Assembly: GCA_032718475.1 (NCBI GenBank)
Contig: JAUCBJ010000530.1
Coordinates: 35,991-99,990, forward strand
DNA: 64,000 nt
Reading direction: 5' to 3'
Source: Nemertoderma westbladi
Taxonomy: Eukaryota > Animalia > Xenacoelomorpha
Part shown: positions 1,372-64,000 of the stretch, in pieces
Layout: the number at the start of each line of letters is the position of its first letter
How positions within the stretch are numbered: the first letter of the stretch is position 1
Translations under genes and position numbers: made by a program
Notes under the pieces: model-generated
Told to the model about the DNA's origin: nothing
The model's database searches: none
What the model saw: only the letters and a program-made list of their open reading frames with translations

Positions 1372-1972
1372 CTAAACATGTAGTGACACCATCTCCTGTA
1401 TATCCAGTTTTGCAACTACAACTAAATCCACCATCAGTATTGGAACAGTCAGCATTAATGTGGCAGTTGTCTGTGTTTAATGTACATTCATCATCATCTA
1501 TAAAATTATTTTAAATTTATTTTTTAAGTAAATATAATTATAATATAAAAATACAAAATGTTTTCAGCTATTAACAAATTATACCTATAATTGTATATGA
1601 AATTATTACCTGAACATGTAGTGACACCATCTCCTGTATATCCAGTTTTGCAACTACAACTAAATCCACCATCAGTATTGGAACAGTCAGCATTAATGTG
1701 GCAGTTGTCTGTGTTTAATGTACATTCATCATCATCTATAAAATTATTTTAAATTCATTTTTTAAGTAAATATAATTATAGTATAAAAAAATAAAATGTA
1801 TCCAGTTATTAACAAATTTGTCTCTAATTGTATATAAATTTATTACCTGCACATGTACTGACACCATCTCCTGTATATCCTGATTTGCAACTACAACTAA
1901 ATCCACCATCAGTATTGGAACAGTCAGCATTAATGTGGCAGTTGTCTGTGTTTAATGTACATTCATCATCAT
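1372..1972 (-). CDS. EGF exons 33-35 (1847-1972, 1610-1735, 1372-1497)
   Basis: Same module; the last exon still ends in a GT donor, so the gene should continue leftward. Confidence 0.9.
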
Positions 1973-4900
1973 CTATAAAATTATATTAAATTAATTTTTT
2001 AAGTAAATACAAGATATATAATTTTAAGTGCAGACTTCCCGTGGTACCGATGAGTTTAAGGTTAGAATGCATGTCGTTGTCGTATGCTCCATTATGCTAA
2101 AACGAATTTTTATGATCAACTGTACAAGAAATGATAAATACATGTATTGAATTATAAATTTCTACAATATTAAATAAATCAATTTTAAACTAAATTAAAT
2201 TAAATGTTTTGTATTTATGTTGAATAATTATTAATTATTAATGTTCTTCAAGTATGTCGAAGAGGCCGCTTTTGTTAGTGGAGTCTACAGTTCCTAGGAT
2301 CGAGGCCGAGTTGCCGATTAGGATGGCTATCAGGAGTCTTTGCAGCAGAAATCGATGAGACCGGGGTTCCTGTGTTGCTTGTCGAATCTTCCTGCCGACC
2401 TCTTTCAGGAATGAGGTTGTTGCTGGTCCTGGCCGGCCAAGGGTTTCGAAGGCTACTGGTGCGAAGAGGTATCCTCGGTCTACTAGTTCTTCGTACTTTC
2501 TGGATTTGGTCTCTTCTTGCTCCTTGGCAACACGACCTCCTGCGGATAGACTGGTAGCGAGATGGCTGGGCGCTAGAGGGTCTATGACCGTCGCGTCCCA
2601 CATCAGGGACTTACCGCGCGACCAAGGGATGAGGGTCATGCCGTCTGGGCGTTTACCGTCCGTTCGACAGAGGCCTGGCGGCTCCAGGATGGACGGAACA
2701 CCACAGCTGGAGAGTGCGCGCTTTATGATGTCATTTAGCGCCGTGTGGCGCGGAATCCGCCCCAAGCTCCTCTGGCAGGACAGGCCATGTAGGCCTTCGG
2801 TATCGACTTCCTTACCGCATCTGGCGCATGTGTGTTGTTCTGTGACTCGACAGCCTAGTCGAGTAGCGATTGAGATATGGAGCTGACTGTCAGTTAGCTT
2901 TAAACCTAGCGACGACGATGGTAGCGCGTCTATCCAGCAACCGGAGACAGGGTCATCTAAAGAGTTTAGTCGAGCGATATTCTTTGGAGAAGCGGTGCGG
3001 CGAAGTGACGCGAGGTTCTCTTCGTGGATCGGGTTTGTCCAAGTCTTCTGCATGTTTACAGAGGACGCTGAAGGTTGCTCGCAATCGGTGGTCACTGATC
3101 TCTTCCAGAGCTCATAGGCGTGATCAGTTAAGGTGTTTCGAGATGGAGTAGGCGCAGTGGTGGTGAAAAGACAGCCAGTAAGTTCAGCACATGCAGCCGC
3201 AGAAGCCAGATAGGCAGAAGGGGCGAGCTGTATGGCTGAGCTTAGGCCCAACCCGCCTGAACGAGCTGGTACACAGGCCTGTATCCACGAACTGTCATTG
3301 ATTCCGACGTTTGCTACTTTCACCAACGCAGACCGCAGTGTATCGTCATATCTTTCCAGAAGCTGGGGAAACGAAAAACATGGAGCAGAGCGGAGGTAAT
3401 ATAGCAGGCGAGGGATTGCGAAAGAGTTCCTAAGCAAGAAGAATCCATGGTGGCTGTCGAGGAGATGAAGCCGGTCGCTAATCAAGGCCAAGTCGTTTAT
3501 CTCGTCAGTCAGACAGGACTCTATAGCCTCAGATCCGATTGGGGCCCCTAGCATAATCAGTTGGTCAGTTAAAGGTAACTGGATCTTTCCGCCACAAACT
3601 CTATTGAAATCTTCCTGAATCCGGGCTCGATCATCATCAGACACTGGACCCAGAAAAAATAGCTCGCACTTTGAGGGGTTTAGGGTGAGGCCAAGTTTCT
3701 TCCCTTCCACAATTATCGTTCTCAGATCATCTAGAACAACGGTATACAATCCTGCCATGTTACCATCGTCAAGATACCATACGTTAAAATCGGATTTCAA
3801 TGAGTGGATGGTGTCGTTGATTGTGTCTCCGAAGAGAGGGGGTCCCTCGGGGTCACCCTGTTGGGCTCCATCATCAGAGACTAAGATTTCATCACCGTGA
3901 ACTAGAAAGCTTGAGTTACCATAGGCAGCCAACGTATAGTTATATATGCTGGGATACTTCCTCGCCACAGTCTCGAGAATGGCATCACGTCGAAGTGAAT
4001 TGAAGGCATTGTTGAAATCTACCTTCAGCAACACCGTGTTGGGAGCGTTCGTTGAAGATATCAAGGACCGGGACGTGGGCTGCAGCCTCTGTCCCATTCT
4101 TTGTTCCTATTCCTAACTGGATGTGGCCGTAAGATTCGATGCTCTGGTCTTTGACTGTGTGGCTGGCGTATTTGGCACTTAGTCTACGCCAGGTATTGCC
4201 TACGGCAATTGGCCGGATGCCACCGAAAATCTTCGTAAATGCTAGCAGATTGGCTCCGAAGTAAGTTGGTCCAATTTTATCTGGAACTTTCCCGGCGTGT
4301 GTTATGCCAATGAATTTCGCGACGGCACCCAGAAGACGATTTCCAGACACCCCAGAGGTAAATACAATTTATTGGGAGTAAATACAATTATAGTATAAAA
4401 ACATAAAATGTATCCAGTTATTAAAAAATTTGTCTCTAATTGTATATAAATTTATAACCTGCACATGTAATGACACCATCTCCTGTATATCCAGTTTTGC
4501 AACTACAACTAAATCCACCAGCAGTATTGGAACAGTCAGCATTAATGTGGCAGTTGTCTGTGTTTAATGTACATTCATCATCATCTATAAAATTATATTA
4601 AATTCATTTTGTAGGTAAATATAATTTTAGTATAAAAACAGAGAATGTGTTTAGCTATTAACAAATTCTGTCTAGATAGTTAGTTATATATGAATTTATT
4701 ACCTAAACATGTAGTGACACCATCTCCTGTATATCCAGTTTTGCAACTACAACTAAATCCACCATCAGTATTGGAACAGTCAGCATCAATGTGGCAGTTG
4801 TCTGTGTTTAATGTACATTCATCATCATCTATAAAATTATTTTAAATTTATTTTTTTAAGTAAATATAATTATAGTATAAAAATATAAAATGTTTTTAGC

Positions 4901-7900
4901 TATTAACAAATTATATCTATAATCAATGGATAACAAATTCTAGAATTTATTCTTAATATTTAAGTGACGCATATTATTTTATCATACATAAACAAATGAG
5001 TATTCTTTAATACTTAATAGAGAATATTGATATTAATCAAAATTAACACAACCAAATTAAATATATATATAAAGAGTTGATCGATAGAGTATTTCAGTAT
5101 TATATGTTATACATTTGTTTATGTGGATCTCAACAGCTCGGCCGTGGGCTAGTATTGTGTCGTTATGTCTCGTCCACGAAGACCGGCCCCATCGCCAAAC
5201 CCAAGTCCACGCCAAGATCTGCGACCACCACGGAGGCAAAGAGAACTCGATCTCAGCAGTGCAAATTGCAATCTTCGTCGAACGCCTCCCAACACGCTGG
5301 CGAGACCGCGCTCACGCATTGGTTGGTGCTTCCCCACCAGGACTTCTGCAATGTGATTGATCAGTATCCTGGTTTCTGGACACCACACACCGTCTGTGGT
5401 ACCCATGAGTGGAGTGAACGACATCCGTCGGTCTTCACAGACAGTGCGGTAGTGGCGCCTCTTATAGATGCAGCGTTCTTCGAGGAGAGACTCGGTGGAT
5501 CGATTGGCCTGGGCGTACGAGGTGGCGTCAGCGTTTATAATCACAACATCTAACGACGCCACCCGTTGGTTCGCCCAGAGCCCTCGCGCTACTAAATCGG
5601 CTCGTACACCCCCGACCGTTGTCCCAGTGTTGTCTAGCTGTCCCTGGGACAGGGTTACCTCGCGCTCGACGCTTGTGGCCCCAACCACAGAAGCAAGCAG
5701 GTCGCCAAACACCTTGCGGACCTCGTCGTGGCACTTCACTATCAAACCCCCCAGCTTGCAGCTCAGGGCATGGGAGGTAGAGAACTCGCCTCCACAACAC
5801 TCGCACTTCACTGGCAGGCCGGGAGGGACTAAGCCATACCGGAGGGCCAGGTTATCGCGGAACTCCTCCGCACTTAGGTCCGTGTGATGTAATACCGAGG
5901 GCTGTGCATTCAGCCAGCCTCTGCTCCGATGGTTTACCGCACGTTCGACCGTTCTCCGCTGGGCTGCAGGGATGGCTTCCAGTACAGAATCCCGTTTCTC
6001 TATAAAGGTTACTTCCAGTTCTTCCCTGGATTTCTTGAGTTCCTGTTTTAGTTGCAAGACGTGATCGGCAACTTGTAGCGTTGTGCCGTTTCAAATCGCC
6101 TCCGAAACTAAGACAGTGCCTTTGGTGGATGCTTGATGCGCCGACAACCTTCTGATCAACGGATCCCGAATTCCAATTCCTCCGTGTCGTGTTGGTAGTA
6201 AAAGCAACTCCTCATCCGTATCCCCAAGAACTGGAAACCCAAAAATGGCAGGTATGAAGTCGAGGAGGAGAGCCGTCCGGATTGGGGCGATTTGGTCTAA
6301 GGTTGTAGGGATCACTCTCAGCAGGTAGTCCCATTCTGCTTGGACGCAGAGTGAGACCGCGGTATGCGCTGATTGGGGGTATTCCTTCGCTACTGCTGAA
6401 AGTTTACGGACACTGTCCTTCCAACCCGCCACCTTCTCGCTAATGTAGACGTTCCTTCCCGACGCAGCCCCGATGAAACCGCCCAAGTAACGATGTCCGG
6501 ATACGATCTGTACCCCTGTCTGGGTAAATAATTCCTGGGCCTCAACTTCACAGCCAGGCTTAACAATCAGGAATGTTTCCGAGGGCTCGGGAAAGTATCC
6601 AATCATTGGACCGATCTCCATAAGTACGTCCCACCACTCACGAATACTGGCGAGTTTACCAGCTGATGAGGAGTCGTCGGCATACCAACATTGAGTCTGA
6701 TCCCTGCGGTTCAGGTCCGGTTGTGGAGAAATAACTGGAGCCGATGGCTCCTCGCGATGGTTGGGCGGTGTCGATTGTGGAGTCGATGGGATGAAGTCTG
6801 TGGAAGATGGTGACTGAGATCTAACCTCACGCAGCTTCCTAACCAATGGTAGGGTTGCGCAGGCGTAGCCAAACATGGCGGCTGGGTCCCCTTGCGTCCA
6901 GCCCTCACTGCTCCACAGTGGATTGTTGCTGCCGTGTAGGTAGAGTGCTGCGTGTCCATTATACGAGTTATATAAAAACCGAGAAGCGCGGTGCCACAGG
7001 ACTCTGCAGTTCCAAAGAGAAACTGGCCGACTCACTTGAGTTGAATGCATTTTTCGCGTCAACGAGAAGCATTGCTTGAGTTTCATCATCCTCGAATACA
7101 GCTGTCATTGCGTGGACTGCCGCTTCGATGCCGGCCTTTATTCCCGCACACAACTGGTCGGCGCCGCACTGCTGAATGAGATCGGCCTTGGTTTCATCCA
7201 TTAGGCAGTTCGCTATGAGGCGGTACAGCACTTCAGGGATTCCGATGGGCCGAACTCCTGGTAGTTTGTCGAGTGCCACTAAACGGCAGGCCCGCAATGC
7301 CCGAATCTCTCCCCATGGTACAACCGTATTGGCCAGACAACGAGTCAAACCCGCTACAGCTTCCCGGAGCCTGGAGCTGTGACCTTCATACCTCGTTAGG
7401 AGTGCGCACCAAAACTCACCGTCACCTCCAACCGGTCCTGCGCTACCACGCAACGCTCTCGCATTCTTCGAAACACACTGCCCAGTAATATCGATCCCTT
7501 CGAACTGCGGCAGGTCGTGACAGGGGTCGAGTGATTCCACCGGAACTTCCATCTGAGGTAGGTGTTTCTCCACCAGGATGTCTCTAACCGTGACACCAAG
7601 GGGTTTACCCCCTGCATGCGCATTCGGGTCCAACATTCCGCCAGAATCCCGATCGGTCACTAACCTCACTGCGGCCCGGTCCATCCCCGCGAGAATCTTT
7701 CGGTTGAATAACCGCGCTGAATTATCAGCTGTGGAAATGCCTCTACTCGAAGGGAACTTCGCGTTACAGCGCTCCGACTCAGTGAGGAGGGGGTCGAACT
7801 CGCCACGCTCCCACATCTCAACACGCCTCAGTATCGTTCTCCTGATATCAGGACTCTTTACTACATCCGGGTCCCTCTGAAACATTAAGGCGATGAAGCA

Positions 7901-10900
7901 CAGAGGGCGTTCTGAAGGGTGCTGACCCTGAGTAAGGCCCTCAATCTCCTGGGTGAGAACATCTACGAGCTTACGCCCAGCATTGCCACCTGGAACCACA
8001 TACCTCCTACTGGGTAACTGAGCCAGACGAGCATGTCTAGCTTCCCAAACGGGATCCATTGAGCTTCCAGGACCGTTAATCCACACGCCACCGAAGGCGG
8101 ATTCGAGGACCTTGGAAGTTGAGAGAGGCGTTGAAGGTGACGACTCAGGAGAACCTGCTACCGGAGAAGGGCCCGAGCTAGTGGGAGAAAGTTGGCCTGC
8201 GTTGTTTCCAGTTGCCAAGCTTGCGTTGCTGTTTAGAGCGGCTGTTTGTGGGTTTAAACAGCTTCCTGACGACGACGGCGTGCAATTCGCACAAGGGCGT
8301 TGGGCCCTGACACATCCACATCGACTGGTGGGGCTACATCCACTAATCGTGCAGCCACAGCAGCGCTGTGAACTGAGCGACATTGGATCCTTGGTGGTAA
8401 TAGGATCTTCTGCTATTGATATAGTATCCCCCACTCTAGATGTAATTACTGGATTTTGAGGTTTAGATATGCAAGGAGTTAAATGGGAAATTATAAAACC
8501 AGATCCTATACAGGATGTACCCTTCACATTCTTATGCTTCCGCAACTTACCACTTTGATTGGCTGCAATCATTTTTTGGCAGGAAGGGCATAGATTTTTG
8601 CCAGTTTGTGCAATAGGAGGCTGGTTAAGAGAACCTTGCTGAGTTGGGGAGGGTTGATGGGTTGGAGGAGAAACTGATTGGGTGGTAGGTAACTGGGTGT
8701 TAGTGGGTTGTGAGGGGACTGAGTCTGCAGCTTTCACTAGAACTGATTTTAATGACACCAAGGAATGAAGATATACACGAAAGGACTGCATAGAGGTATC
8801 GTTAACTGTTTCAATCGACTCCTTATTTAGGATGAGTTGTGCAAACTTACAGACGTAGATACCACATTGATAACCATTGTACTGGAGCTTAGGGAGTGGA
8901 GGAGAAATATGAAAATCACATAGAGGGATTCTGAAACGATTAGCCTCATTAGATAGCCATAATTTGAATTCATCTATGAGTTTTAAGTCCAATCCACCAA
9001 GTGAGTTGAAATAGCAAATCTCCCATGTAGCGGGTGAAAAGGTAAGCAGTGTCCAATGGTTGTTACAATGGATGGGAAAGAATAAATAATCTAATGAAAA
9101 GTCACTTAATCTGGTCCAACTTTTTAATGATTCATAACCTCCTTTGCTCCTTAGTATATAAAGAAAGCGAGTGCTGAAAACTCGTACTTTCTGTGCATTC
9201 GCAATGCACATTACACCAATGACACTTTCTATAATGTTATCTGTTACCCAATTTTGGCCGTCCAAGCTTCCAATATCCCTTTCTGAGAGTGTAAAACCTT
9301 CATAATTGTATGTGTTTACATAATTGGGGGGGGACGTCATTCGAGAGTAGCGATTCGGTAAGGTCGATGCAGCTTGAATTCATTTTACAGGTAGTAGTAG
9401 ATCAGCTAGTTGTTGGGCGAAAGTCCAATAAAACATGTAATATACATTTGGTGGGCAATATAACATAAATTAACATCATTATACTAGGCCTATATCATAT
9501 TAAGGTTCCTATTTTTATAAATCTTATTTTTGTAGTAACAATTACGTAATAGCTAGTATATAATAAAAATTCACTCTGAGAATTAACTCTGAAAATTTAT
9601 TCACCCTCTCTTACTCAAAAATTCTAGAAACCCCATCTAAATAAAATATAATATATAAATCCAATTATATCTATAATTGGATTTAAATTTATTACCTGCA
9701 CATGTAGTGACACCATCTCCTGTATATCCAGTTTTGCAACTACAACTAAATCCACCATCAGTATTGGAACAGTCAGCATTAATGTGGCAGTTGTCTGTGT
9801 TTAATGTACATTCATCATCATCTATAAAATTATTTTAAATTCATTTTTTAAGTAAATACAATTATAGTATAAAAACATAAAATGTATCCAGTTATTAACA
9901 AATTTGTCTCTAATTGTATATAAATTTATTACCTGCACATGTAATGACACCATCTCCTGTATATCCTGATTTGCAACTACAACTAAATCCACCATCAGTA
10001 TTGGAACAGTCAGCATTAATGTGGCAGTTGTCTGTGTTTAATGTACATTCATCATCATCTATAAAATTATTTTAAATTCATTTTTTAAGTAAAATACAAT
10101 TATAGTATAAAAACATAAAATGTATCCAGTTATTAACAAATTTGTCTCTAATTGTATATAAATTTATTACCTGCACATGTAATGACACCATCTCCTGTAT
10201 ATCCTGATTTGCAACTACAACTAAATCCACCATCAGTATTGGAACAGTCAGCATTAATGTGGCAGTTGTCTGTGTATAATGTACATTCATCATCATCTAT
10301 AAAATTATTTTAAATTTTTTTTTTAAGTAAATATAATTATAGTATAAAAATATAAAATGTTTTTAGCTATTAACAAATTATATCTATAATTGTATATAAA
10401 TTTATTACCTGCACATGTAGTGACACCATCTCCTGTATATCCTGATTTGCAACTACAACTAAATCCACCATCAGTATTGGAACAGTCAGCATTAATGTGG
10501 CAGTTGTCTGTGTTTAATGTACATTCATCATCATCTATAAAATTATTTTAAATTTATTTTTTAAGTAAATATAATTATAGTATAAAAATATAAAATGTTT
10601 TTAGCTATTAACAAATTATATCTATAATTGGATTTAAATTTATTACCTGCACATGTAGTGACACCATCTCCTGTATATCCTGATTTGCAACTACAACTAA
10701 ATCCACCATCAGTATTGGAACAGTCAGCATTAATGTGGCAGTTGTCTGTGTTTAATGTACATTCATCATCATCTATAAAATTATTTTAAATTCATTTTTT
10801 AAGTAAATACAATTATAGTATAAAAACATAAAATGTATCCAGTTATTAACAAATTTGTCTCTAATTGTATATAAATTTATTACCTGCACATGTAATGACA

Positions 10901-13900
10901 CCATCTCCTGTATATCCTGATTTGCAACTACAACTAAATCCACCATCAGTATTGGAACAGTCAGCATTAATGTGGCAGTTGTCTGTGTTTAATGTACATT
11001 CATCATCATCTATAAAATTATATTAAATTCATTTTTTAAGTAAATACAATTATAGTATAAAAACATAAAATGTATCCAGTTATTAACAAATTTGTCTCTA
11101 ATTGTATATAAATTTATTACCTGCACATGTAATGACACCATCTCCTGTATATCCAGTTTTGCAACTACAACTAAATCCACCAGCAGTATTGGAACAGTCA
11201 GCATTAATGTGGCAGTTGTGTGTGTTTAATGTACATTCATCATCATCTATAAAATTATATTAAATTCATTTTTTAAGTAAATACAATTATAGTATAAAAA
11301 CATAAAATGTATCCAGTTATTAACAAATTTGTCTCTAATTGTATATAAATTTATTACCTGCACATGTAGTGACACCATCTCCTGTATATCCTGATTTGCA
11401 ACTACAACTAAATCCACCATCAGTATTGGAACAGTCAGCATTAATGTGGCAGTTGTCTGTGTTTAATGTACATTCATCATCATCTATAAAATTATATTAA
11501 ATTCATTTTTTAAGTAAATACAATTATAGTATAAAAACATAAAATGTATCCAGTTATTAACAAATTTGTCTCTAATTGTATATAAATTTATTACCTGCAC
11601 ATGTAACGACACCATCTCCTGTATATCCAGTTTTGCAACTACAACTAAATCCACCAGCAGTATTGGAACAGTCAGCATTAATGTGGCAGTTGTCTGTGTT
11701 TAATGTACATTCATCATCATCTATAAAATTATATTAAATTCATTTTTTAAGTAAATACAATTATAGTATAAAAACATAAAATGTATCCAGTTATTAACAA
11801 ATTTGTCTCTAATTGTATATAAATTTATTACCTGCACATGTAATGACACCATCTCCTGTATATCCAGTTTTGCAACTACAACTAAATCCACCAGCAGTAT
11901 TGGAACAGTCAGCATTAATGTGGCAGTTGTCTGTGTTTAATGTACATTCATCATCATCTATAAAATTATATTAAATTCATTTTTTAAGTAAATACAATTA
12001 TAGTATAAAAACATAAAATGTATCCAGTTATTAACAAATTTGTCTCTAATTGTATATAAATGTATTACCTGCACATGTAGTGACACCATCTCCTGTATAT
12101 CCAGATTTGCAACTACAACTAAATCCACCATCAGTATTGGAACAGTCAGCATTAATGTGGCAGTTGTCTGTGTTTAATGTACATTCATCATCATCTATAA
12201 AATTATATTAAATTCATTTTTTAAGTAAATACAATTATAGTATAAAAACATAAAATGTATCCAGTTATTAACAAATTTGTCTCTAATTGTATATAAATTT
12301 ATTACCTGCACATGTAGTGACACCATCTCCTGTATATCCAGTTTTGCAACTACAACTAAATCCACCATCAGTATTGGAACAGTCAGCATTAATGTGGCAG
12401 TTGTCTGTGTTTAATGTACATTCATCATCATCTATAAAATTATTTTAAATTCATTTTTTAAGTAAATACAATTATAGTATAAAAACATAAAATGTATCCA
12501 GTTATTAACAAATTTGTCTCTAATTGTATATAAATTTATTACCTGCACATGTAATGACACCATCTCCTGTATATCCAGTTTTGCAACTACAACTAAATCC
12601 ACCAGCAGTATTGGAACAGTCAGCATTAATGTGGCAGTTGTCTGTGTTTAATGTACATTCATCATCATCTATAAAATTATATTAAATTCATTTTTTAAGT
12701 AAATACAATTATAGTATAAAAACATAAAATGTATCCAGTTATTAACAAATTTGTCTCTAATTGTATATAAATTTATTACCTGCACATGTAGTGTCACCAT
12801 CTCCTGTATATCCAGTTTTGCAACTACAACTAAATCCACCATCAGTATTGGAACAGTCAGCATTAATGTGGCAGTTGTCTGTGATTAATGTACATTCATC
12901 ATCATCTATAAAATTATTTTAAATTTATTTTTTAAGTAAATATAATTATAGTATAAAAATATAAAATGTTTTTAGCTATTAACAAATTATATCTATAATT
13001 GTATTTAAATTTATTACCTGCACATGTAGTGACACCATCTCCTGTATATCCTGATTTGCAACTACAACTAAATCCACCAGCAGTATTGGAACAGTCAGCA
13101 TTAATGTGGCAGTTGTGTGTGTTTAATGTACATTCATCATCATCTATAAAATTATATTAAATTCATTTTTTAAGTAAATACAATTATAGTATAAAAACAT
13201 AAAAATGTATCCAGTTATTAACAAATTTGTCTCTAATTGTATATAAATTTAATACCTGCACATGTAATGACACCATCTCCTGTATATCCTGATTTGCAAC
13301 TACAACTAAATCCACCATCAGTATTGGAACAGTCAGCATTAATGTGGCAGTTGTCTGTGTTTAATGTACATTCATCATCATCTATAAAATTATATTAAAT
13401 TCATTTTTTAAGTAAATACAATTATAGTATAAAAACATAAAATGTATCCAGTTATTAACAAATTTGTCTCTAATTGTATATAAATTTATTACCTGGACAT
13501 GTAATGACACCATCTCCTGTATATCCAGTTTTGCAACTACAACTAAATCCACCAGCAGTATTGGAACAGTCAGCATTAATGTGGCAGTTGTCTGTGTTTA
13601 ATGTACATTCATCATCATCTATAAAATTATTTTAAATTCATTTTGTAGGTAAATATAATTTTAGTATAAAAACAGAAAATGTGTTTAGCTATTAACAAAT
13701 TCAGTCTAGATAGTTAGTTATATATGAATTTATTACCTAAACAAGTAGTGACACCATCTCCTGTATATCCAGATTTGCAACTACAACTAAATCCACCATC
13801 AGTATTGGAACAGTCAGCATTAATGTGGCAGTTGTCTGTGTTTAATGTACATTCATCATCATCTATAAAATTATATTAAATTCATTTTTTAAGTAAATAC

Positions 13901-16900
13901 AATTATAGTATAAAAACATAAAATGTATCCAGTTATTAACAAATTTGTCTCTAATTGTATATAAATTTATTACCTGCACATGTAATGACACCATCTCCTG
14001 TATATCCAGTTTTGCAACTACAACTAAATCCACCATCAGTATTGGAACAGTCAGCATTAATGTGGCAGTTGTCTGTGTTTAATGTACATTCATCATCATC
14101 TATAAAATTATTTTAAATTTATTTTTTAAGTAAATATAATTATAGTATAAACATATAAAATGTTTTTAGCTATTAACAAATTATATCTATAATTGTATAT
14201 AAATTTATTACCTAAACATGTAGTGACACCATCTCCTGTATATCCTGATTTGCAACTACAACTAAATCCACCAGCAGTATTGGAACAGTCAGCATTAATG
14301 TGGCAGTTGTGTGTGTTTAATGTACATTCATCATCATCTATAAAATTATATTAAATTCATTTTTTAAGTAAATACAATTATAGTATAATAACATAAAATG
14401 TATCCAGTTATTAACAAATTTGTCTCTAATTGTATATAAATTTATTACCTGCACATGTAATGACACCATCTCCTGTATATCCAGTTTTGCAACTACAACT
14501 AAATCCACCAGCAGTATTGGAACAGTCAGCATTAATGTGGCAGTTGTCTGTGTTTAATGTACATTCATCATCATCTATAAAATTATTTTAAATTCATTTT
14601 GTAGGTAAATATAATTTTAGTATAAAAACAGAAAATGTGTTTAGCTATTAACAAATTCAGTCTAGATAGTTAGTTATATATGAATTGATTACCTAAACAT
14701 GTAGTGACACCATCTCCTGTATATCCTGATTTGCAACTACAACTAAATCCACCAGCAGTATTGGAACAGTCAGCATTAATGTGGCAGTTGTCTGTGTTTA
14801 ATGTACATTCATCATCATCTATAAAATTATATTAAATTCATTTTTTAAGTAAATACAATTATAGTATAAAAACATAAAATGTATCCAGTTATTAACAAAT
14901 TTGTCTCTAATTGTATATAAATTTATTACCTGCACATGTAATGACACCATCTCCTGTATATCCAGTTTTGCAACTACAACTAAATCCACCAGCAGTATTG
15001 GAACAGTCAGCATTAATGTGGCAGTTGTCTGTGTTTAATGTACATTCATCATCATCTATAAAATTTTATTAAATTCATTTTGTAGGTAAATATAATTATA
15101 GTATAAAAACAGAAATTGTGTTTAGCTATTAACACATTCTGTCTAGATAGTTATATTTGAATTTATTACCTAAACATGTAGTGACACCATCTCCTGTATA
15201 TCCAGTTTTGCAACTACAACTAAATCCACCATCAGTATTGGAACAGTCAGCATTTATTTATTTATTTCGTACATATTAAATTGCATTACAACAACTAATA
15301 GTACAGCATACATAGTGGAAAAGCACAAGAATATGAATATGAGCCTAAACTACTATAGTACAATATTGAATATATATAATGCTAATTACGTAGTACAACT
15401 AAATATCAATATAACGATCGCCTAGTTCAACTAGTAAATAGTTACAAAGTGTTTACAATAATTACAAATTAGATCAAATCGATATACATTTACAATCGTT
15501 GTATCACATATGAAAAATTGAAAAATCCTATTTAAATTATAATTTCGGGATTATTTCTAAAGGTTACGAAGCACATATATAATTTAAAATATCATTAAGT
15601 TCCTCTGTGGAGAAACCTGGTACGAATAAATCGTCCTCCCCATGTTTACAATTGACCAATTCACGACAAAGATTAATATATGGTAAATTAGAATCATTTA
15701 CAAACCAAGAAATATTATTGCACATTTTCGCTGTCACACAATGAATAGCTAGATTACATTTATTGGCGATACGCTTAAGATTCGTACCACTAATCGACCT
15801 ACAGTCGTATAATGTAAGATTTGCAAGAAAACGAATACTAGGTTTTGCGCAATTAGAAATTGATGTGGCAAAATTAACAAAGCGGCTGCATAACATCGTC
15901 ATAGGATACGGAAAATCTGAAAGCCCCTCAACAAAAAATCTGTGTGTATTGTAAGGTAATTTCCAGGTTAAACGAAAGTTAATATTCCAACTAGTAATCA
16001 GCTTATGACAACTATCACTCCAATATCCCATAGAATACTACCGTAGAAACTTGTAGCAAAAATGTGCTGAATTTTACAGATACTGTGTGGATGAGCAAAG
16101 CTAAATTCACGTCTAATACAATTCAATTTACCTATGAATTTACCTCTTTTACTTAAAATATCTTTATAGAATTTGCCCTCAAAATCAAAAATGTTTCCCA
16201 AATGTGTCGCTTCTATAACCCATGGTAAAATAATGTTACGAATTCGAAAAGTAGCTACTGGGACATTCCAACTGAAATCAAAAGGGATGCACTTCGATTT
16301 ACTTTTAACCGCGTCACGGTTGGTACTAAACGACATATGAAATTCATCAGCAAACGTGACACATATATTTAACATCTGTTGCAACCCTTTAATTGACGGG
16401 CACACTAAGAAAATATTGTCAGCGTATACGAACACACCTACAAATCTGGATGCAATGTGACAACCAAGGGCACTGGCTCTAAGTTTAATAATTAGTTTGT
16501 TTATAATAACACAAAACAAAATCGGTGAAGCCCCCGAATCCTTGTCTGACACCATTGCCAATACTGAAAGTTCTCGAACATGTTGAACCCCACTTGACAA
16601 AACAATATTGACCATTATACATAAATAATAATGTACGCAAAAACAACGAAGAAAACCCTTTATTGAAAAGTTCTAGGAATAACGACTTCCATTCAATCAT
16701 ATCAAATGCCTTAGTTAAATCTAATAAGCATCCAAAAACAGGGGTGGAATTAATGTGGCAGTTGTCTCTGTTTAATGTACATTCATCATCATCTATAAAA
16801 TTATATTAAATTCATTTTGTTGGTAAATATAATTTTAGTATAAAAACAGAAATAATGTGTTTAGCTATTAACAAATTCTGTCAAGATAGTTATATATGAA

Positions 16901-31900: not shown

Positions 31901-34900
31901 CATCTCCAACCAGACACTTTATAACATTGGAGGTGTCTCATTGGTTCCCCCAAGCTTGACACTAGAACAAAATCGCCTCCGCTTTGCAGGACATTGCTTT
32001 CGCCGTGAGGACCAGAAGGTGCATAATCTTGTACTTTGGCAGCCTCATGTAGTGAATACACATGGTGGACAGCTCATGACTTTCTTGAGACGCATCTTAA
32101 AGGACACTGGCCTTGAAGATGCGGATGATCTAGCAAATGTCATGGGTGATAGGGAGTTGTGGCGGTGCAATTTTGTCGATAAGCCGGCACAGCATTCTTA
32201 AAAATGCAGCTGCAATGTAGCATGCTGATCCTAGTAGTAGTAGTATTGGTTCCCTCATGCTTGACACTTGATTAAAGCCGCCTCTGCTTTGTCTGATTTT
32301 GCTGTGAGGACCAGCCTGTGCACAATCTTGTGCTTTAGCAGCCCCATGGAGAAAATAAGCATGGTGGTCATCCCTTGACTTTCTTGAGACGCCTCTTAAA
32401 GGACACTGGCCTTGAAGATGAGGATAATCTCGCCAAGGTCATGGGGGATAGGGAGTTGTGGCAAGGTAATTTTGTTGATAAGTCAGTATAGTATTCTTAA
32501 TGCACGCTGCATTGGGCTTGCCAATTGTGGATTGCATGGTGGTAGTAATATACTTTTGTTAAGCCAGCATAGCATATCAATGTGCAGTTTCAATGCAGCA
32601 GGCCGATTATGGTACAGTAGTAGTTATGCAAATTTATTACCTAAACATGCAGCGACGCCATCTCCTGTATATCCAGTTTTGCAACTACAACTAAATCCAC
32701 CATCAGTATTGGAACAGTCAGCATTAATGTGGCAGTTGTCTATGTTTAATGTACATTCATCATCATCTATAAAATTATTTTAAATTCATTTTTTAAGTAA
32801 ATATAATTATAGTATAAAAGCAGAAAATGTATCCAGTTATTAACAAATTTTTCTATAATTGTATATAAAATTATTACCTAAACATGTAGTGACACCGTCT
32901 CCTGTATATCCTGATTTGCAACTACAACTAAATCCACCATCAGTATTGGAACAGTCAGCATTAATGTGGCAGTTGTCTGTGTTTAATGTACATTCATCAT
33001 TATCTATAAAATTATTTTAAATTCATTTTTTAAGTAAATATAATTATAGTATAAAAATATAAAATGTTTTTAGCTATCAACAAATTATACCTATAATGTT
33101 GATTAAATGTTTTTTTCGTTAGCATTAATAGAGAATATTGATATTAATCAAAATTAACACAACCAAATTAAATATATATATAAAGAGTTGATCGATAGAG
33201 TATTTCAGTATTATATGTTATACATTTGTTTATGTGGATCTCAACAGCTCGGCCGTGGGCTAGTATTGTGTCGTTATGTCTCGTCCACGAAGACTGGCCC
33301 CATCGCCAAACCCAAGTCCACGCCAAGATCTGCGACCACCACAGAGGCAAAGAGAACTCGATCTCAGCAGTGCAAATTGCAATCTTCGTCGAACGCCTCC
33401 CAACACGCTGGCGAGACCGCGCTCTCGCATTGGTTGGTGCTTCCCCACCAGGACTTCTGCAATGTGATTGATTAGTATCCTGGTTTCTGGACACCACACA
33501 CCGTCTGTGGTACCCACGAGCGGAGTGAACGACATCCGTCGGTCTTCACAGACAGTGCGGTAGTGGCGCCTCTTATAGCTGCAGCGTTCTTCGAGGAGAG
33601 ACTCGGTGGATCGATTGGCCTGGGCGTACGAGGTGGCGTCAGCGTTTATAATCGCAACATCTAACGACGCCACCCGTTGGTTCGCCCAGAGCCCTCGCAC
33701 TACTAAATCGGCTCGTACACCCCCGACCGTTGTACCAGCGTTGTCTAGATGTCCCCGGGACAGGGTTACCTCGCGCTCGACGCTTGTGGCCCTAACCACA
33801 GAAGCAAGCAGGTCGCCAAACACCTCGCAGACCTCGTCGTGGCGCTTCACTATCAAACCCCCCGACTTGCAGCTCAGGGCATGGGAGGTAGAGAACTCGC
33901 CTCCACAACCCTTGCACTTCACTGGCAGGCCGGGAGGGACTAGGCCATACCGGAGGGCCAGGTTATCCCGGAACTCCTCCGCACTTAGGTCCATGTGATC
34001 TAATATCGAGGGCTGTGCATTCAGCCAGCCTCCGGTCCGATGGTTTACCGCACGTTCGACCGTTCTCCGCCGGGCTGCAGGGATGGCTTCCAGTACAGAA
34101 TCCCGTTTCTCTATAAAGGTTACTTCCAGTTCTTCCCTGGATTTCTTGAGTTCCTGTTTTAGTTGCAAGACGTGATCGGTGACTTGTAGTGTTGTGCCGT
34201 TTCGAATCGCCTCCAAAACTAAGACAGTGCCTTTGGTAGATGCTTGATGCGCCGACAACCTTCTGATCAACGGATCCCGAAGTCCAATTCCTCTGTGTCG
34301 TGTTGGTAGTAAAAGCAACTCCTCATCCATATCCCCAAGAACTGGAAACCCGAAAATGGCAGGTATGAAGTCTAGGAGGAGAGCCGTCCGGATTGGGGCA
34401 ATTTGGTCTAAGGTTGTAGGGATCACTCTCAGCAGGTAGTCCCATTCCGCTTGGACGCAGAGTGAGACCGCAGTATGCGCTGATTGGGGGTATTCCTTCG
34501 CTACTGCTGAAAGTTTACGGACACTGTCCTTCCAACCCGCCACCTTCTCACTAATGTAGACGTTCCTTCCCGACTCAGCCCCGATGAAACTGCCCAAGTA
34601 ACGATGTCCGGATACGATCTGTACCCCTGTCTGGGCAAATAATTCCTGGGCCTCAACTTCACAGCCAGGCTTAACAATCAGGAATGTTTTCGAGGGCTCG
34701 GGAAAGTATCCAATCATCGGACCGATCTCCATAAGTACGTCCAACCACTCACGAATACTGGCGAGTTTACCAGCTGATGAGAACGACTGAGATCTAAACT
34801 CACGCAGCTTCCTAACCAATGGTAGGGTTGCGCAGGCGTAGCCAAACATGGCGGCTGGGTCCCCTTGCGTCCAGCCCTCACTGCTCCACAGTGGATCGTT

Positions 34901-37900
34901 GCTGCCGTATAGGTAGAGTGCTGCGTGTCCGTTATACGAGTTATATAAAAACCGAGAAGCGTGTTGCCACAGCACTCTGCAGTTCCAAAGAGAAACTGGC
35001 CGACTCACTGAGTTGTGGAATGCATTTTTCGCGTCAACGAGAAGCATTGCTTGAGTTTCATCGTCCTCGAATACAGCTGTCATTGCGTGGACTGCCGCAT
35101 CGATGCCGGCCTTTATTCCCACACACAACTGGTCGGCGCCGCACTGCTGAATGAGATCGGCCTTGGTTTCATCCATTAGGCAGTTCGCTATGAGGCGGTA
35201 CAGCACTTCAGGGATTCTGATGGGCCGAACTCCTGGTAGTTTGTCGAGTGCTACTAAACGGCAGGCCTGCAATGCCCGAATCTCTCCCATGGTACAACCG
35301 TATTGGCCAGACTACGAGTCAAACCCGCTACAGCTTCCCGGAGCCTGGAGCTGTGACCTTCATACCTCGTTAGGAGTGCGCACCAAAACTCACCGTCACC
35401 TCCAACCGGTCCTGCGCTACCACGCAACGCTCTCGCATTCTTCGAAACACGCTGCCCAGTAATATCGATCCCTTCGAACTGTGGCAGGTCGGGACAGGGG
35501 TCGAGTGATTCCACCGGAACTTCCATCTGAGGTGGGTGTTTCTCCACCAGGACGTCTCTAACCGTGACACCAAGGGGTTTACCCTCTGCCTGCGCATTCG
35601 GGTCCAAAACTCCGCCAGAATCCCGATCGGTCACTAACCTCACTGCGGCCCGGTTCATCCCCGCGAGAATCTTTCGGTTGAATAACTGCGCTGAATTATC
35701 AGCTGTGGAAATGCCTCTACTCGAAGGGAACTTTGCGTTACAGCGCTCCGACTCGGTGAGGAGGGGGTCGAACTCGCCATGCTCCCACATCTCAACACGC
35801 CTCAGTATCATTCTCCTGATATCAGGACTCTTTACTACATCCGGGTCCCTCTGAAACGTTAAGGCGATGAAGCACAGAGGGCGTTCTGAAGGGTGCTGAC
35901 CCTGAGTAAGGCCCTCAATCTCCTGGGTGAGAACATCTACGACCTTACGCCCAGCATTGCCACCCGGAACCACATACCTCCTACTAGGTACCCGAGCCAG
36001 ACGAGCATGTCTAGCTTCTCAAACGGGATCCGTTGAGCTTCCAGGACCGTTAATCCACACGCCACCGAAGGCGGATTCGAGGACCTTGGAAGTTGAGAGA
36101 GGCGTTGAAGGTGACGACTCAGGAGAACCTGCTACCGGAGAAGGGCCCGAGCTAGTGGGAGAAAGTTGGCCTGCGTTGTTTCCAGCTGCCAAGCTTGCGT
36201 TGCTGTTTAGAGCGGCTGTTTGTGGGTTTAAACAGCTTCCTGACGACGACGGCGTGCAATTCGCACAAGGGCGTTGGGCCCTGACACATCCACATCGACT
36301 GCTGGGGCTACATCCACTACTCGTGCAGCCACAGCAGCGTGGTGAACTGAGCGAGATTGGATCCTTGGTGGTACTAGAATCTTCTCCTATTGATATAGTA
36401 TCCCCCACTCTAGATGTAATTACTGGATTTTGAGGTTTAGATATGCAAGGAGTTAAATGGGAAATTATAAAACCAGATCCTATACAGGATGTACCCTTCA
36501 CATTCTTATGCTTCCGCAACTTACCACTTTGATTGGCTGCAATCATTTTTTGGCAGGAAGGGCATAGATTTTTGCCAGTTTGTGCAATAGGAGGCTGGTT
36601 AAGAGAACCTTGCTGAGTTGGGGAGGGTTGATGGGTTGGAGGAGAAACTGATTGGGTGGTAGGTAACTGGGTGTTAGTGGGTTGTGAGGGGACTGAGTCT
36701 GCAGCTTTCACTAGAACTGATTTTGATGACACCAAGGAATGAAGATATACACAAAAGGACTGGATAGAGGTATCGTTAACTGTTTCAATCGACTCCTTAT
36801 TTAGGATGAGTTGTGCAAACTTACAGACGTAGATTTATTATACCTATAATTGTATATAAATTTATTACCTGAACATGTAGTGACACCATCTCCTGTATAT
36901 CCAGTTTTGCAACTACAACTAAATCCACCATCAGTATTGGAACAGTCAGCATTAATGTGGCAGTTGTCTGTGTTTAATGTACATTCATCATCATCTATAA
37001 AATTATATTAAATTCATTTTGTAGGTAAATATAATTATAGTATAAAAACAGAAAATGTTTTTAGCTATTTGCAAATTCTGTCTAGATAGTTATATATGAA
37101 TTTATTACCTGCACATGTAGTGACACCATCTCCTGTATATCCAGTTTTGCAACTACAACTAAATCCACCATCAGTATTGGAACAGTCAGCATTTATGTGG
37201 CAGTTGTCTGTGTTTAATGTACATTCATCATCATCTATAAAATTATATTAAATTCATTTTGTAGGTAAATATAATTATAGTATAAAAACAGAAAATGTTT
37301 TTAGCTATTTGCAAATTCTGTCTAGATAGTTATATATGAATTTATTACCTGCACATGTAGTGACACCATCTCCTGTATATCCAGTTTTGCAACTACAACT
37401 AAATCCACCATCAGTATTGGAACAGTCAGCATTTATGTGGCAGTTGTCTGTGTTTAATGTACATTCATCAACATCTATAAAATAATGACTTACAGGCACA
37501 CGATGATTAAAAATTGAAGTAGTATGACATCATTAGGCCCTTATTTAAACCTTTTGAACAAGATCTCAACCGGACTTTTCATACCAGAATTTTTTGTCAC
37601 GAACTATTCGCCCCAGTTTATCTCACCTGAACTTCTCCCCCACAATTTCAGTCACAAGAGGAAAATTAATAAATTACTAGCTACCATAACACTGCTTATA
37701 AACAATAATTAGTAACGAAACATGCTTTACAATAATGTTAAAAATACTAGCTAACCTACAAAACTGGTAGGATTAGCTAACCTACAAAACTGGTAGGATT
37801 AGCTAACATTAAAAAAACACCAACTTTTTACAGATATAAGAAATCCAGGAGAACAATTCTGGGACGAAAAGTCCGGGTCGTAGATTATTAACAGTAATTT

Positions 37901-40900
37901 TTTTCGAGATTCAGCATTACTCTAACTGTCATTCCAGTATTATATAATTATATTTTATATGGATATAATTCGCGAAATCACACAATGGTTCACATCTACT
38001 AACGCTTGAACGAATCTCCTTGAATGGCTTACTACCAATATTACTACCAGAAAAAATCAGTCCAAAAAAGTCCAATGCTCTACCAACTTCGCCACTGCAC
38101 CGTATGAATCCTTATAAAACTAAAAGCTAACTAGAATTTAACAATAACAACACCAACAACAACGGAGTGAATACTAGAGGTCTAAAAATATCGGACCTAA
38201 AAATCTAGAACACAATCTGTTATTTATAGAATTTTCAAAATTCTGGTGCCCCTGTGGCAGCACAAAAATATGGGTTAAGGTCATAATGTTTTTGGGAAGT
38301 GTAACGCCTTATGAAGCCTTTGGAACCTCAAGATAAAAAAATATTTACATAATTTACTTTGAAGGAATTTTCAAAATTTCATTATTTATCAAAATTTTGA
38401 AATATTTTTTGGCCTGGTTGCTACACAAAAGATATTTTTTGGTCTAAAATTTTTGCTCAAGTGTTTTTAAAACCCCTCCATAGATTCCAACCTCAGGCAT
38501 TTCGATTTTCAAAAAAATGTATTTTTCACTCCACCCTATTGCATAGTCCGGACATACTGGACCAAATACGAAGTCTTTTGTATTGTTACAATAAAGAGTA
38601 GTAAATGAAAATAGTAAACAGTATTAACTTACCCAAGCCACCACAATGTCCCCATCTATCAGATATATCTCCAGACTCTATAACAACTGCTTGTTTAAAT
38701 GGTTCTATGGTTGTGTATTGGGTTCCTTGTAATACATGAATATAGGTAATCCCTGCGCCCTTGTAGTCTCCAATACCAGCATCCCAGCCTCCTGGTTGGC
38801 TGAGGTATGGGAACACTGCATTAGCTACGGTTGCTTGGAGCCGAATACCAGGTGCACCATCACCCAATCTGTACCAGTACATCATTCCAACTAAAAATGA
38901 GGAATGACAAAGTAGACAAACCTATACTGAAATTGATTAACTAGCTAGCATTTAGCTAGCTTGTAATTAGCTACCAGGAACAGATTCTTTTAATTCATAA
39001 AAAAATCCTGGTAGCATATTAAGATAATGAACTGTACCCTGCCCATGGGAAAGAGTAAAGGGTTATTATTTAGAGCCGCAGCCGATTATTAATGCAGCTG
39101 CAATGCATCATGCCGATCCTAGTAGTACTAGTAAGGGGACTAAGTTAATTTATAGAGTGACTGCTCTATGTTTGTCCAGGTGACCAGTTTATCATCCAAA
39201 CTGTGGGAGGTCTACTTTGGTGTTGTGTATTGGTATAATTTTGCAGTATAGAATCCATATACAATGTATATTTATTATATATGATATAAATATTGTATAA
39301 TATACAATATTGATATTATATATATTAAACCATCGGACGATGGCCGGTGTGGGAACCCCAACAACTTGTCGGTTTCCACCGCGTTAACGAGTGAGGGAGA
39401 AGAATCGGACTCGGATTCATTTGTGAGTGCGGACTCGTACAAGAGGAGTGGCATGGTCACCCAGATCCTGGTACTCTGCGCAGACGAAACCGACAGTGGT
39501 GCTGGAATGATGCCATCGAACTCCTCATCGTTGGCTAACGATCCGGATCCCACAGAAACTCCCTCTCCTCTTCCATCGGGGCCATCGACATCCAACAGAC
39601 TGGAGGCTGCCTTCGATGGGCCGTGGCTTAATGCCCCCGGTTCGTCGACCGATCCGGACTGGGAGGCCCGCCACACCCGCCTCACCCAGGTGGTCTGTCG
39701 CCAGTACACGGTGCCAGGCGGCAACGTTGGGCGCAAAGTGGTGGACGTGCTCGCAAGCGAGGTGGAGAAGTTGACTGAGGGGGTCTACCCCTCGGAGAGA
39801 CCCCTTTGTTTCCTTGCCACGATGTTCCAGCGGGACCCCGATGTGGTGAAGGGGGCGGACATCCGGCGAACCATTCTGCATCGACTCGGGATGTGGGAAC
39901 GGGAGGAGTTCCGTCAGCTCATAGCTGAGGTGGAGCGCTGCAGCGTGAGATTCGCCCGCTCCCTTCGCTCAGCCCCACCTAACATGGCCAGGACCTACAA
40001 CCGGAAGATCCTGGCAGGACAGAACCGGTCCGCGGTCCGCCTCGTAACAGACTGGGACAGCGGCGGAGTGCTGGATCCCGAGTCCCAGGCTGAGGGTCAG
40101 CCAGTCGGCGTAACAGTTCGCGACGTCCTTGCCGCGAAACACCCAGCTCAGTTGGACGTCTCGCCAGACGCGTTCGACCCGTGCGACGAGTTGCCCCCCT
40201 TCGAAGCGGTGGACATTATGGGGCAACTCGTCTTGAAGGTATCGCGGTACCTTAGTGGTAGCCCATTGGTGGTGACGCCGAACTGTGGAGTGCCCTCCTC
40301 ACCCGCTACGAGGCGCACAGCTCCCGCCTCTGCGAGGCAGTCGCCGGGTTGGCTCGATGCCTCGCCAACTCGGTGGTCCCGTGGGGGGAAATCCTGGCGC
40401 TCCGAGCGTGCCGCCTCGTCGCTATCGACAAGGAGCCCTGCATCCGGCCGATCGGGATCTGTGAAGTTCTGTACCGGCTCACCACAAACTGCCTCACCTC
40501 GGCCACTAAAATGGACTTTATAACTGAGTGTGGGGTGGACCAGCTCTGTGCGGGAGTTAAGGCTGGGATTGAAGGCGCGGTCCACGCGATGTCAGCGATG
40601 TTCGAGCAACCCTCCACCGAGTGTATGCTCCTCATTGACGCCGCAAATGCCTTCAACAGCCTGAGTCGCCCTGTGGCCTTGTGGAACGCGCGCGTTTACT
40701 GGCACCGGTGCTCCCGGTACCTGTATAATGCTTATAACGGCCACGCAGCCCTCTACCTACAGGGGTCTAGCAAACCACTGTGGAGTAGGGAGGGCTATAC
40801 GCAGGGCGACCCGGCCGCCATGCTGGGCTACAGCTGTGGGACTCTCCCCATGGTCCGCTCGCTGAGGGAAGTCGGATCGCTAACACCCCCTAGCGATCTG

Positions 40901-62479: not shown

Positions 62480-64000
62480 GAGCAACAAGTTTCCCACGTG
62501 AGAGGGGTCCAGCAACAAGTTGCGAAATAAGTTTTGGAAACAAGTTGCAGACACAAGTTTCCCCCGTATAAGGAGTCCACCAACAAGTTTCCCATGCGTG
62601 AGGAGTCCAGCAACAAGTTTCTGTGTGTGAGGGGTCCTGCAACAAGTTTTCCGTGTGTGAGGAGTCCAACAACCAGTTTTCCGTGTGTGAGGAGTCCAAC
62701 AACAAGTTTTCCGTGTGTGAGGGGTCCAGCAACAAGTTTCTGTGCTTGATGAGTCCAGGAACAAGTTTTCCGTGTGTGAGGAGTCCTGCAACAAGTTTTC
62801 CGTGTGTGAGGAGTCCAACAACAAGTTTTCCATGTGTAAGGGGTCCAGCAACAAGTTTTTGTGCATGAGGAGTCCTGCAACAAGTTTTCCGTGTGTGAGG
62901 AGTCCAACAACCAGTTTTCCGTGTGTGAGGAGTCCAACAACAAGTTTTCCGTGTGTGAGGGGTCCAGCAACAAGTTTTCCGTGTGTGAGGGGTCCAGCAA
63001 CAAGTTTCCCGTGTGTGAGGAGTCCAGCAACAAGTTTTCCATGTGTGAGGGGTCCAGCAACAAGTTTTCCGTGTGTGAGGGGTCCAGCAACAAGTTTCCC
63101 GTGTGTGAGGAGTCCAGCAACAAGTTTTCCATGTGTGAGGGGTCCAGCAACAAGTTTTCCGTGTGTGAGGGGTCCAGCAACAAGTTTTCCATGTGTGAGG
63201 GGTCCAGCAACAAGTTTCCCGTGTGTGAGGAGTCCAGCAACAAGTTTTCCATGTGTGAGGGGTCCAGCAACAAGTTTTCCGTGTGTGAGGGGTTCAGCAA
63301 CAAGTTTCCCCTGTGTGAGGAGTCCAGCAACAAGTTTTCAATGTGTGAGGAGTCCAGCAACAAGTTTCTGTGCTTGATGAGTCCAGCAACAAGTTTTCCG
63401 TGTGTGAGGGGGTCCAGCAACAAGTTTCTGTGTGTGAGGGGGTCCAGCAACAAGTTTCCCGTGTGTGAGGAGTCCAGCAACAAGTTTTCCATGTGTGAGG
63501 GGTCCAGCAACAAGTTTTCCGTGTGTGAGGGGTCCAGCAACAAGTTTTCCATGTGTGAGGGGTCCAGCAACAAGTTTCCCGTGTGTGAGGAGTCCAGCAA
63601 CAAGTTTTCCATGTGTGAGGGGTCCAGCAACAAGTTTTCCGTGTGTGAGGGGTTCAGCAACAAGTTTCCCCTGTGTGAGGAGTCCAGCAACAAGTTTTCA
63701 ATGTGTGAGGGGGTCCAACAACAAGTTTCTGTGTGTGAGGGAGTCCAACAACAAGTTTTCTGTGTGTGAGAAATCCAACAACAAGTTTCTGTGTGTGAGG
63801 GGTCCAGCAACAAGTTTTCTGTCTGTGAGGAGTCCAGCAACAAGTTTTCTGTCTGTGAGGAGTCCAGCAATAAGTTTTCAGTGTGTGAGGAGTCCAGCAA
63901 CAAGTTTTCTGTGTGTGAGGGGGTCCAGCAACAAGTTTATGTGTGTGTGAGGGGGTCCTGCAACAAGTTTCTGTGTGTGAGGAGTCCAGCAACAAGTTTC
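62480..64000. repeat. 30-bp satellite (agcaacaagttttccgtgtgtgagg[g/a]gtcc), about 50 units, continuing past the window end
   Basis: Clear 30-bp period; source of the ENLLLDPSHT / ATSFPCVRGP ORFs. Confidence 0.97.

Follow-up and report, generated by a model that had tools for sequence, protein, structure and literature searches.

R2 is the only member of the restriction-like-endonuclease LINEs that has been studied in detail. Its protein reads the target asymmetrically through N-terminal fingers and cuts the two strands 2 bp apart, and in the available part of the source the question of whether one protein or two make these cuts is described as unresolved (PMC12180492). More broadly, the portion of the literature on LINE cleavage available to us describes the cleavage sites as generally not palindromic and the two sites as generally unrelated in sequence (PMC6895275). 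An N-terminal Ulp1 protease is a trait described for NeSL/Utopia-1_TSP elements, and the HERO clade is characterized in the same excerpted source as non-specific for the most part, certain families being microsatellite-specific (PMC4640811). Dong, of the R4 clade, represents nuclease-bearing LINEs that insert into simple repeats, according to the accessible text (PMC3636483). Introns of protein-coding exon arrays are absent from the LINE target classes listed in the available part of one further paper (PMC5035012). In the literature searched, which left Repbase Reports and subscription journals outside, we found no report of a palindromic LINE target.

The locus described here lies in a stretch of 64,000 nt from Nemertoderma westbladi (hereafter, the window), which consists of AT-rich eukaryotic DNA with GC-rich islands. 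The minus strand of the window carries a tandem array with a unit length of 237-244 bp, each unit being composed of a 126-bp exon and an intron of ~112 nt. The translation of one array exon is a calcium-binding EGF (cbEGF) domain (EGF_3, 1e-12; EGF_CA, 1e-10). The introns measure 111-112 nt, in line with the ~112 bp given in the initial annotation. A census of the 34 introns found in the window assigned 18 to the A-type, seven to the B-type and seven to the C-type, and left one hybrid (at 32768) and one diverged edge unit (at 17036). The B-type introns are 92% A+T and carry the spaced palindrome AATTATA-NN-TATAATT, located 18-33 nt downstream of the 5' splice site. Among the three types, this palindrome is confined to the seven B-type introns, which also differ from A and C at several further positions. 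One or both half-sites are missing from the A- and C-type introns, which within the window are unused at this position; the C-type reads aattc(t/a)gtctagatagt there, and the A- and C-type sequences obtained in the census match the earlier reading. The array also includes a run of nine near-identical A-type units, which shows a recent amplification of the A-type and carries no information on selection; the idea in the initial annotation that the A and C variants might be resistant alleles spread by array homogenisation is conjectural.

Two B-type introns are interrupted by copies of a GC-rich element, here called family A. Copy 1 (4924..9662, minus strand, 4739 bp) is a full-length R2-like non-LTR retrotransposon. 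The left 15-bp target duplication, on the 3' side of the element (4909..4923), is identical to the right one (9663-9677), which together with one additional base restores an intact 16-bp palindrome at the 5' side of the insertion (9663..9678). Copy 1 has a single long minus-strand frame, broken by an in-frame TGA (6091-6093) and by a frameshift near 7000, and ends with a copy-specific 3' tail of 90 nt (4924-5013). Copy 2 (33098..36836, minus strand) is ~97% identical to copy 1 and is 5'-truncated, lacking the 802 nt of the 5' end that match 8861-9662 of copy 1. It has a 141-bp internal deletion, the joint of which is also present in a public contig, and a 3' tail of its own (27 nt, 33098-33124). 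Its duplications are 14 bp long (33084..33097 on the left and 36837..36850 on the right), with two extra nucleotides just before the right one.

Both copies run in the same direction as the host gene and share their insertion nucleotide and strand within the 237-bp unit, a coincidence far from random. The palindrome spacer is TC in both duplications of copy 1 and CC in both duplications of copy 2, the two tails are unrelated next to the 3' junction, and the 5' ends also differ. These differences in spacers, tails and 5' ends therefore identify two independent insertions and make the choice of site real. Family A is a real low-copy, site-choosing element, sampled here in two events at one kind of site. 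Neither BLAST comparison of the tails with the window nor unbiased longest-match testing against the local flanks gave more than chance-level matches, the one exception in the latter being a direct 10-mer of the copy 2 tail (p = 0.017).

By its coding content, family A is a restriction-like-endonuclease LINE of the R2 group. The protein begins with a Ulp1-type cysteine protease (8765..9250, minus strand; residues 44-205 of an 803-aa ORF), recognized by Pfam as Peptidase_C48 with an E-value of 6.2e-15 and followed in copy 1 by a cysteine-rich stretch; a protein search with this N-terminal 803-aa ORF returned no match. The reverse transcriptase of the window copies is strongly diverged, the Pfam RVT_1 match being marginal (E 0.27). 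RVT_1 was detected at E<=0.001 in six of 11 relatives, two of them scoring above the Pfam gathering cutoff of 29.6 bits, and the family profile matches the reverse-transcriptase region of R2 (9nl2, E 1.2e-7; 9nl3, 2.7e-5; 9dou, 4.7e-5). The C-terminal part (5152..6090, minus strand; 313 residues) comprises a linker, a CCHC knuckle and a restriction-like (PD-D/E-K) nuclease. In this part, C96, C99, H107, C111 and D165 are invariant across the relatives, and the nuclease residues D181 and K210 are nearly so. The structural model of this part has a pLDDT of 78, and R2 proteins take the first seven places among its fold matches (E 2.3e-5 to 2.6e-3), with Prp8 next. The 15- and 14-bp duplications, the 5' truncation of copy 2 and the lack of terminal repeats are hallmarks of target-primed reverse transcription. 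A search for a self-cleaving ribozyme at the 5' end of family A gave nothing credible in Rfam.

Family A was compared with the described systems. Like R2 (R2Bm, R2Tg and turtle R2; 8gh6, 9dou and 9nl2), family A has a single ORF with a reverse transcriptase followed by the CCHC motif and nuclease, inserts site-specifically into a tandem host unit, and exhibits 5' truncation and variable 5' junctions. The differences are that (i) R2 targets 28S rDNA, whereas the target of family A is an intron, (ii) the R2 nicks are 2 bp apart in a non-palindromic site, whereas those of family A would be 14 nt apart, and (iii) R2 lacks the Ulp1 protease that family A possesses. The sequence similarity between the two is remote (13-15% in the fold alignment). 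The Ulp1-like protease and the insertion into multicopy genes are shared with NeSL-1 and Utopia-1_TSP, but these target spliced-leader and U2 snRNA genes rather than the intron of a cbEGF array. HERO elements are nuclease-bearing, early-branching LINEs, and their microsatellite-specific families fit the (CA)n-flanked relatives of family A described below; membership in HERO is defined by reverse-transcriptase phylogeny against reference elements, and the HERO name given to family A in the initial annotation is a tentative label. In the literature examined, some of it available as excerpts, no HERO element was found to be described as having a Ulp1 domain. Finally, Dong and other microsatellite-specific LINEs occupy long pure repeats, whereas family A uses a single 16-bp imperfect TA-rich dyad in the intron of a protein-coding gene.

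Two other elements with the same architecture as family A are present in the window. The sister element, family B (39325..43130, plus strand), is 5'-truncated and lies inside a TA-rich tract. Its amino-acid identity to family A is 57-74% by segment and 61% in the C-terminal (nuclease) part. The best candidate for its target duplication is 12 bp long (39313-39324 / 43131-43142) and is off-centre from any dyad; an alternative candidate is 39317-39328 / 43222-43233. The third, more distant R2-like element (2013..4376, minus strand; 22% identity in the nuclease region) is also 5'-truncated; it occupies another site, in an A-type intron, and is flanked by an 11-bp duplication (2002-2012 / 4377-4387).

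Protein relatives of family A, at most 47% identical to it, come from Vitrella, marine protist transcriptomes and metagenomes. The metagenome search matched 361 stretches, 250 of which encode a relative, and 80 loci were kept. The 3' flanks in nine groups of near-identical metagenome contigs are varied and share no common motif. Among the 17 loci with both sides present, three (L015, L017 and L026) have (CA)n flanks, one of these being a tandem pair. The Ulp1 protease was found in none of the 11 long ORFs of the metagenomic relatives. In its choice of sites, the wider family ranges from non-specific to microsatellite-specific, in agreement with the published description of HERO (PMC4640811). 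The initial annotation would count other insertions without the TATAAT dyad against its reading. The sister family and the distant relatives do not share the dyad: the best duplication candidate of family B is not centred on one, and the palindrome motif is absent from all 80 metagenome loci. If the palindrome is a trait at all, it is one of the lineage represented in the window.

Three public sequencing runs of the same organism contain about half of the element's words, in the form of short contigs. They show divergence of other copies near 9616-9620 and around 5026, as well as a third copy that is more diverged and has a 542-bp segment replaced. At the position of the stop in copy 1 (6093), public contigs have the sense codon. 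In run X1, which may be the source sample, the depth is ~24-30 at the copy-unique joints, 35-55 in the reverse-transcriptase region and ~5000 in the exons. Contig depth does not equal copy number, and as a rough reading only, these depths suggest a few copies of the element and a few hundred units of the array, perhaps 200-340.

Ten matches to the pattern ATTATA-NN-TATAAT are present in the window, compared with 0.01 expected from shuffled sequences. Nine of these are inside the exon array and correspond to seven distinct B-type introns, because the two introns split by an insertion are each counted twice; the tenth (43173) is outside the array, within a TA-rich tract. When intact, the site forms a perfect 7+2+7 palindrome. 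Five B-type sites are unoccupied: 1577..1592 (spacer CC) and 10376..10391 (spacer TC), identified by the pattern search; 10614..10629, with the same flank variant as the site occupied by copy 1; and 12985..13000 and 14179..14194, both recovered by the pattern search and the intron census. The claim of the initial annotation that the palindrome belongs to the B-type alone, with two of seven sites occupied, is thus borne out by the census of 34 introns, as is the prediction that the A and C introns are empty at the equivalent position: within the window, occupancy at the target position is 2/7 for the B introns and 0/27 for the others. The probability that both insertions fell in B introns by chance is 0.037 (7/34 x 6/33). 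The duplications of 14-15 bp likewise coincide with the palindrome as first reported, those of both copies being centred on the dyad. As for the empty site, cruciform extrusion finds no support, since the hairpin of the bare site is weak (-1.6 kcal/mol; 12-17 of 200 shuffles did equally well).

To account for this site, we propose that the nuclease nicks both strands in mirror image at TATAAT^T, with 14 nt between the nicks, and that target-primed reverse transcription follows; we assign this reading a probability of about 0.45. Compared with asymmetric recognition and with a loose preference for TA-rich DNA, both considered below, it is the best single reading, plausible but unproven. Nicks at TATAAT^T on both strands are separated by 14 nt, which is the length of the copy 2 duplication. 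The earlier suggestion that symmetric nicking sets the duplication length thus stands for copy 2, and for the 15 nt of copy 1 it stands only if the fifteenth base belongs to an inverted copy of the flank. The geometry of the junctions fits mirror cuts in both events (n = 2), and from this geometry we infer the cuts themselves.

Such inverted flank copies were observed at two of the four junctions; the remaining two have none. The insert of copy 1 terminates at its 5' junction in 10 nt (9653-9662) that repeat the flank 9679-9688 in inverted form, with 9/10 matches. This inverted stretch is contiguous with the palindrome and lengthens its arms to 17 nt, giving an extended inverted repeat at 9653..9688 with 94% complementarity between the arms. 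As a DNA hairpin, this junction has a predicted energy of -9.8 kcal/mol, and none of 200 shuffles was as good. The tail of copy 2 starts with a 6-nt inverted copy of the far flank, displaced by 2 nt where an A run lies. Only 13 of the 127,981 10-mers of the window match as well as the copy 1 insert end, and the null values are 1e-4 to 2.5e-4 (positional) for copy 1 and 0.0044 for copy 2, but with four junctions and several patterns inspected these values need a several-fold discount. An origin of the duplications by hairpin opening with P-nucleotides was rejected, because in both copies the spacers, which are non-palindromic, recur in direct order.

Under the symmetric-nicking scheme, the following order of events may be envisaged. 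The nuclease would first cut the plus strand of the window after TATAAT, and the released 3' end would prime the cDNA; the plus strand is placed first because the 3' end of the element abuts that T in both copies. The sense strand would then be cut at the mirror position, and the two cuts would leave 14-nt self-complementary 3' overhangs. In copy 1, the upstream overhang probably folded back, was extended by ~11 nt along its own flank and then switched to the cDNA, which would explain why a fifteenth base is duplicated and why the flank is copied in inverted form over 10 nt. It is likely that the inverted flank copy of copy 1 marks a fold-back of the self-complementary overhang. The more ambitious scheme, in which an R2-like nuclease would cut in mirror image as a restriction enzyme does and the overhangs would fold back to prime the second strand, with inverted flank copies as the trace at the junctions, must be regarded as somewhat doubtful.

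Several observations weigh against the symmetric mode. The only two events on which it is based share one kind of site and a single orientation. Insertions in both orientations would be expected of a fully symmetric site, and two of two in one orientation are uninformative in this respect. The duplication of copy 1 is 15 nt long instead of 14, and family B, with 61% identity in the nuclease part, has no dyad-centred duplication. The copy-specific 3' tails of 27-90 nt are left unexplained. The distant relatives also count against it, with their varied 3' flanks, (CA)n at three of 17 loci and no palindrome motif at any of the 80 loci, as do the asymmetric target reading of R2 and the frequency of such palindromes in shuffled B introns.

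Its main competitor is an asymmetric recognition in the manner of R2, in which a B-specific stretch on one side would be read by the N-terminal cysteine-rich region, with the nuclease cutting close by and the second nick placed at a fixed distance, making the palindrome incidental. We consider this possible but rather unlikely. It is the mode of R2 proteins, as far as the available parts of the sources describe it (PMC12180492, PMC6895275), and it agrees with the single orientation of both copies and with the additional positions that set the B introns apart from A and C. Moreover, palindromes of such size are frequent in shuffled sequences: 68% of shuffled B introns hold some palindrome with arms of at least 7 nt, and 22% hold one with a 2-nt spacer. 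Therefore, the palindrome on its own, in an intron of 92% A+T, is not remarkable. Its coincidence with the insertions is harder to accommodate, as the real B intron contains a single palindrome with arms of at least 7 nt, the duplications are centred on that palindrome, exactly so in both events, and an arbitrary fixed 16-nt window would be a 7-2-7 palindrome at this composition with p = 0.0025. The inverted flank copies at the junctions also argue against asymmetric recognition, since they are explained by a self-complementary overhang.

A less probable explanation is a loose preference for TA-rich, microsatellite-like DNA, with the B site being simply the best such stretch in a unit that exists in hundreds of copies. 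(TA)-like tracts are self-complementary by nature, and such a preference would agree with the position of family B inside a TA-rich tract, with the (CA)n surroundings of the three relatives, and with the microsatellite targets described for some HERO families and Dong elements in the accessible portions of the literature (PMC4640811, PMC3636483). However, TATAATT is found 81 times in the array, counting both strands, and insertions are seen only at the paired configuration, so that a lone heptamer is insufficient; these heptamer sites and other TA-rich stretches remain unused. Both events hit the same nucleotide despite the abundance of TA-rich DNA, including the motif at 43173. The least probable explanation, a single ancestral insertion duplicated by unequal crossing-over and later altered, would suit the homogenising array with its runs of near-identical units and the 97% identity of the copies, but it is very improbable given the duplications that agree within each copy and differ between copies (TC versus CC), the unrelated tails at the junction, the different 5' junctions and the existence of an empty CC-spacer site at 1577-1592.

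If the palindrome is incidental, family A is an ordinary low-copy, site-preferring element. If the symmetric reading is true, the palindromic target of family A would be a first among LINEs, and the element would have the intron of a tandemly repeated protein-coding exon as its niche. Mirror-image cuts on the two strands would be unusual for this class of elements. In the field, it is an open question how the second-strand cut of LINEs is made and how second-strand synthesis begins; if both cuts use the same dyad motif, family A would provide a simple natural system for addressing it, and the fold-back junction of copy 1 suggests a self-priming route for making the second strand. To the target classes known for LINEs, family A would add a new one, the intron in a tandem array of protein-coding exons.

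The two copies of family A, the R2-like non-LTR retrotransposon found at the palindrome of B-type introns, carry unrelated 3' tails, of 90 nt in copy 1 (4924-5013) and 27 nt in copy 2 (33098-33124), each placed between the common 3' end and the target duplication. Poly(A) is absent from both tails, and a direct 10-mer is common to the tail of copy 2 and its flank. A distant third R2-like element, which is 5'-truncated, was found at 2013-4376 with a target duplication at 2002-2012 and 4377-4387. Its host is an A-type intron, and its insertion site differs from that of family A. The 5' junction of this element includes an additional 12-nt partial direct copy of the target (4358-4369) that straddles the inferred nick.

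Family B, the sister element of family A, contains an in-frame, proline-rich 15-bp repeat in 32.5 copies (40934-41427). The repeat is located at the position of the linker where copy 2 of family A has a 141-bp deletion, and thus the linker within the reverse-transcriptase region is variable. An inverted repeat, fold-back or MITE-like, lies a short way downstream of family B (43247-43448); its 96-nt arms are 97% complementary and separated by 10 nt.

An AT-rich non-LTR fragment on the minus strand (~15252-16750; RVT_1, 1.5e-5) is inserted within an exon of the tandem cbEGF array, and therefore at least one array unit, the one that hosts it, is disrupted. A diverged unit at the array edge (17036-17119) matches the B-type intron sequence only as far as the middle of the palindrome; it is followed by ~15.5 kb of other DNA, which includes a reverse-transcriptase fragment (28834-29229) and DUF4371 (29230-29715), and the array is found again from 32630. 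No duplication was seen there.

Other elements of the window include a Ty1/copia-type element with an open frame of 1501 aa (46501-51006; RVT_2, 2e-27; integrase core, 2e-11) and two satellites (54055-56995, 57186-57367, and 62553-63999). The satellite with a 20-bp unit is present in ~145 copies plus 9 more, and the one with a 30-bp unit, in 48 copies, reaches the end of the window. Repeats of 13-82 bp related to the satellites were observed at 27093-27257.

The G+C content of the elements at 4924-9662 (copy 1 of family A) and 39325-43130 (family B) is 45-64% versus 27-30% in the host array, and their nearest protein relatives are found in a chromerid alga and in transcriptomes of marine protists. 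It is conceivable that these elements are of foreign or recent origin. Three metagenomic relatives (L015, L017, and L026; 32-35% identity) are flanked by (CA)n on both sides, and L026 comprises two head-to-tail copies with (CA)n between them. These three loci appear to be microsatellite-specific members of the wider family.
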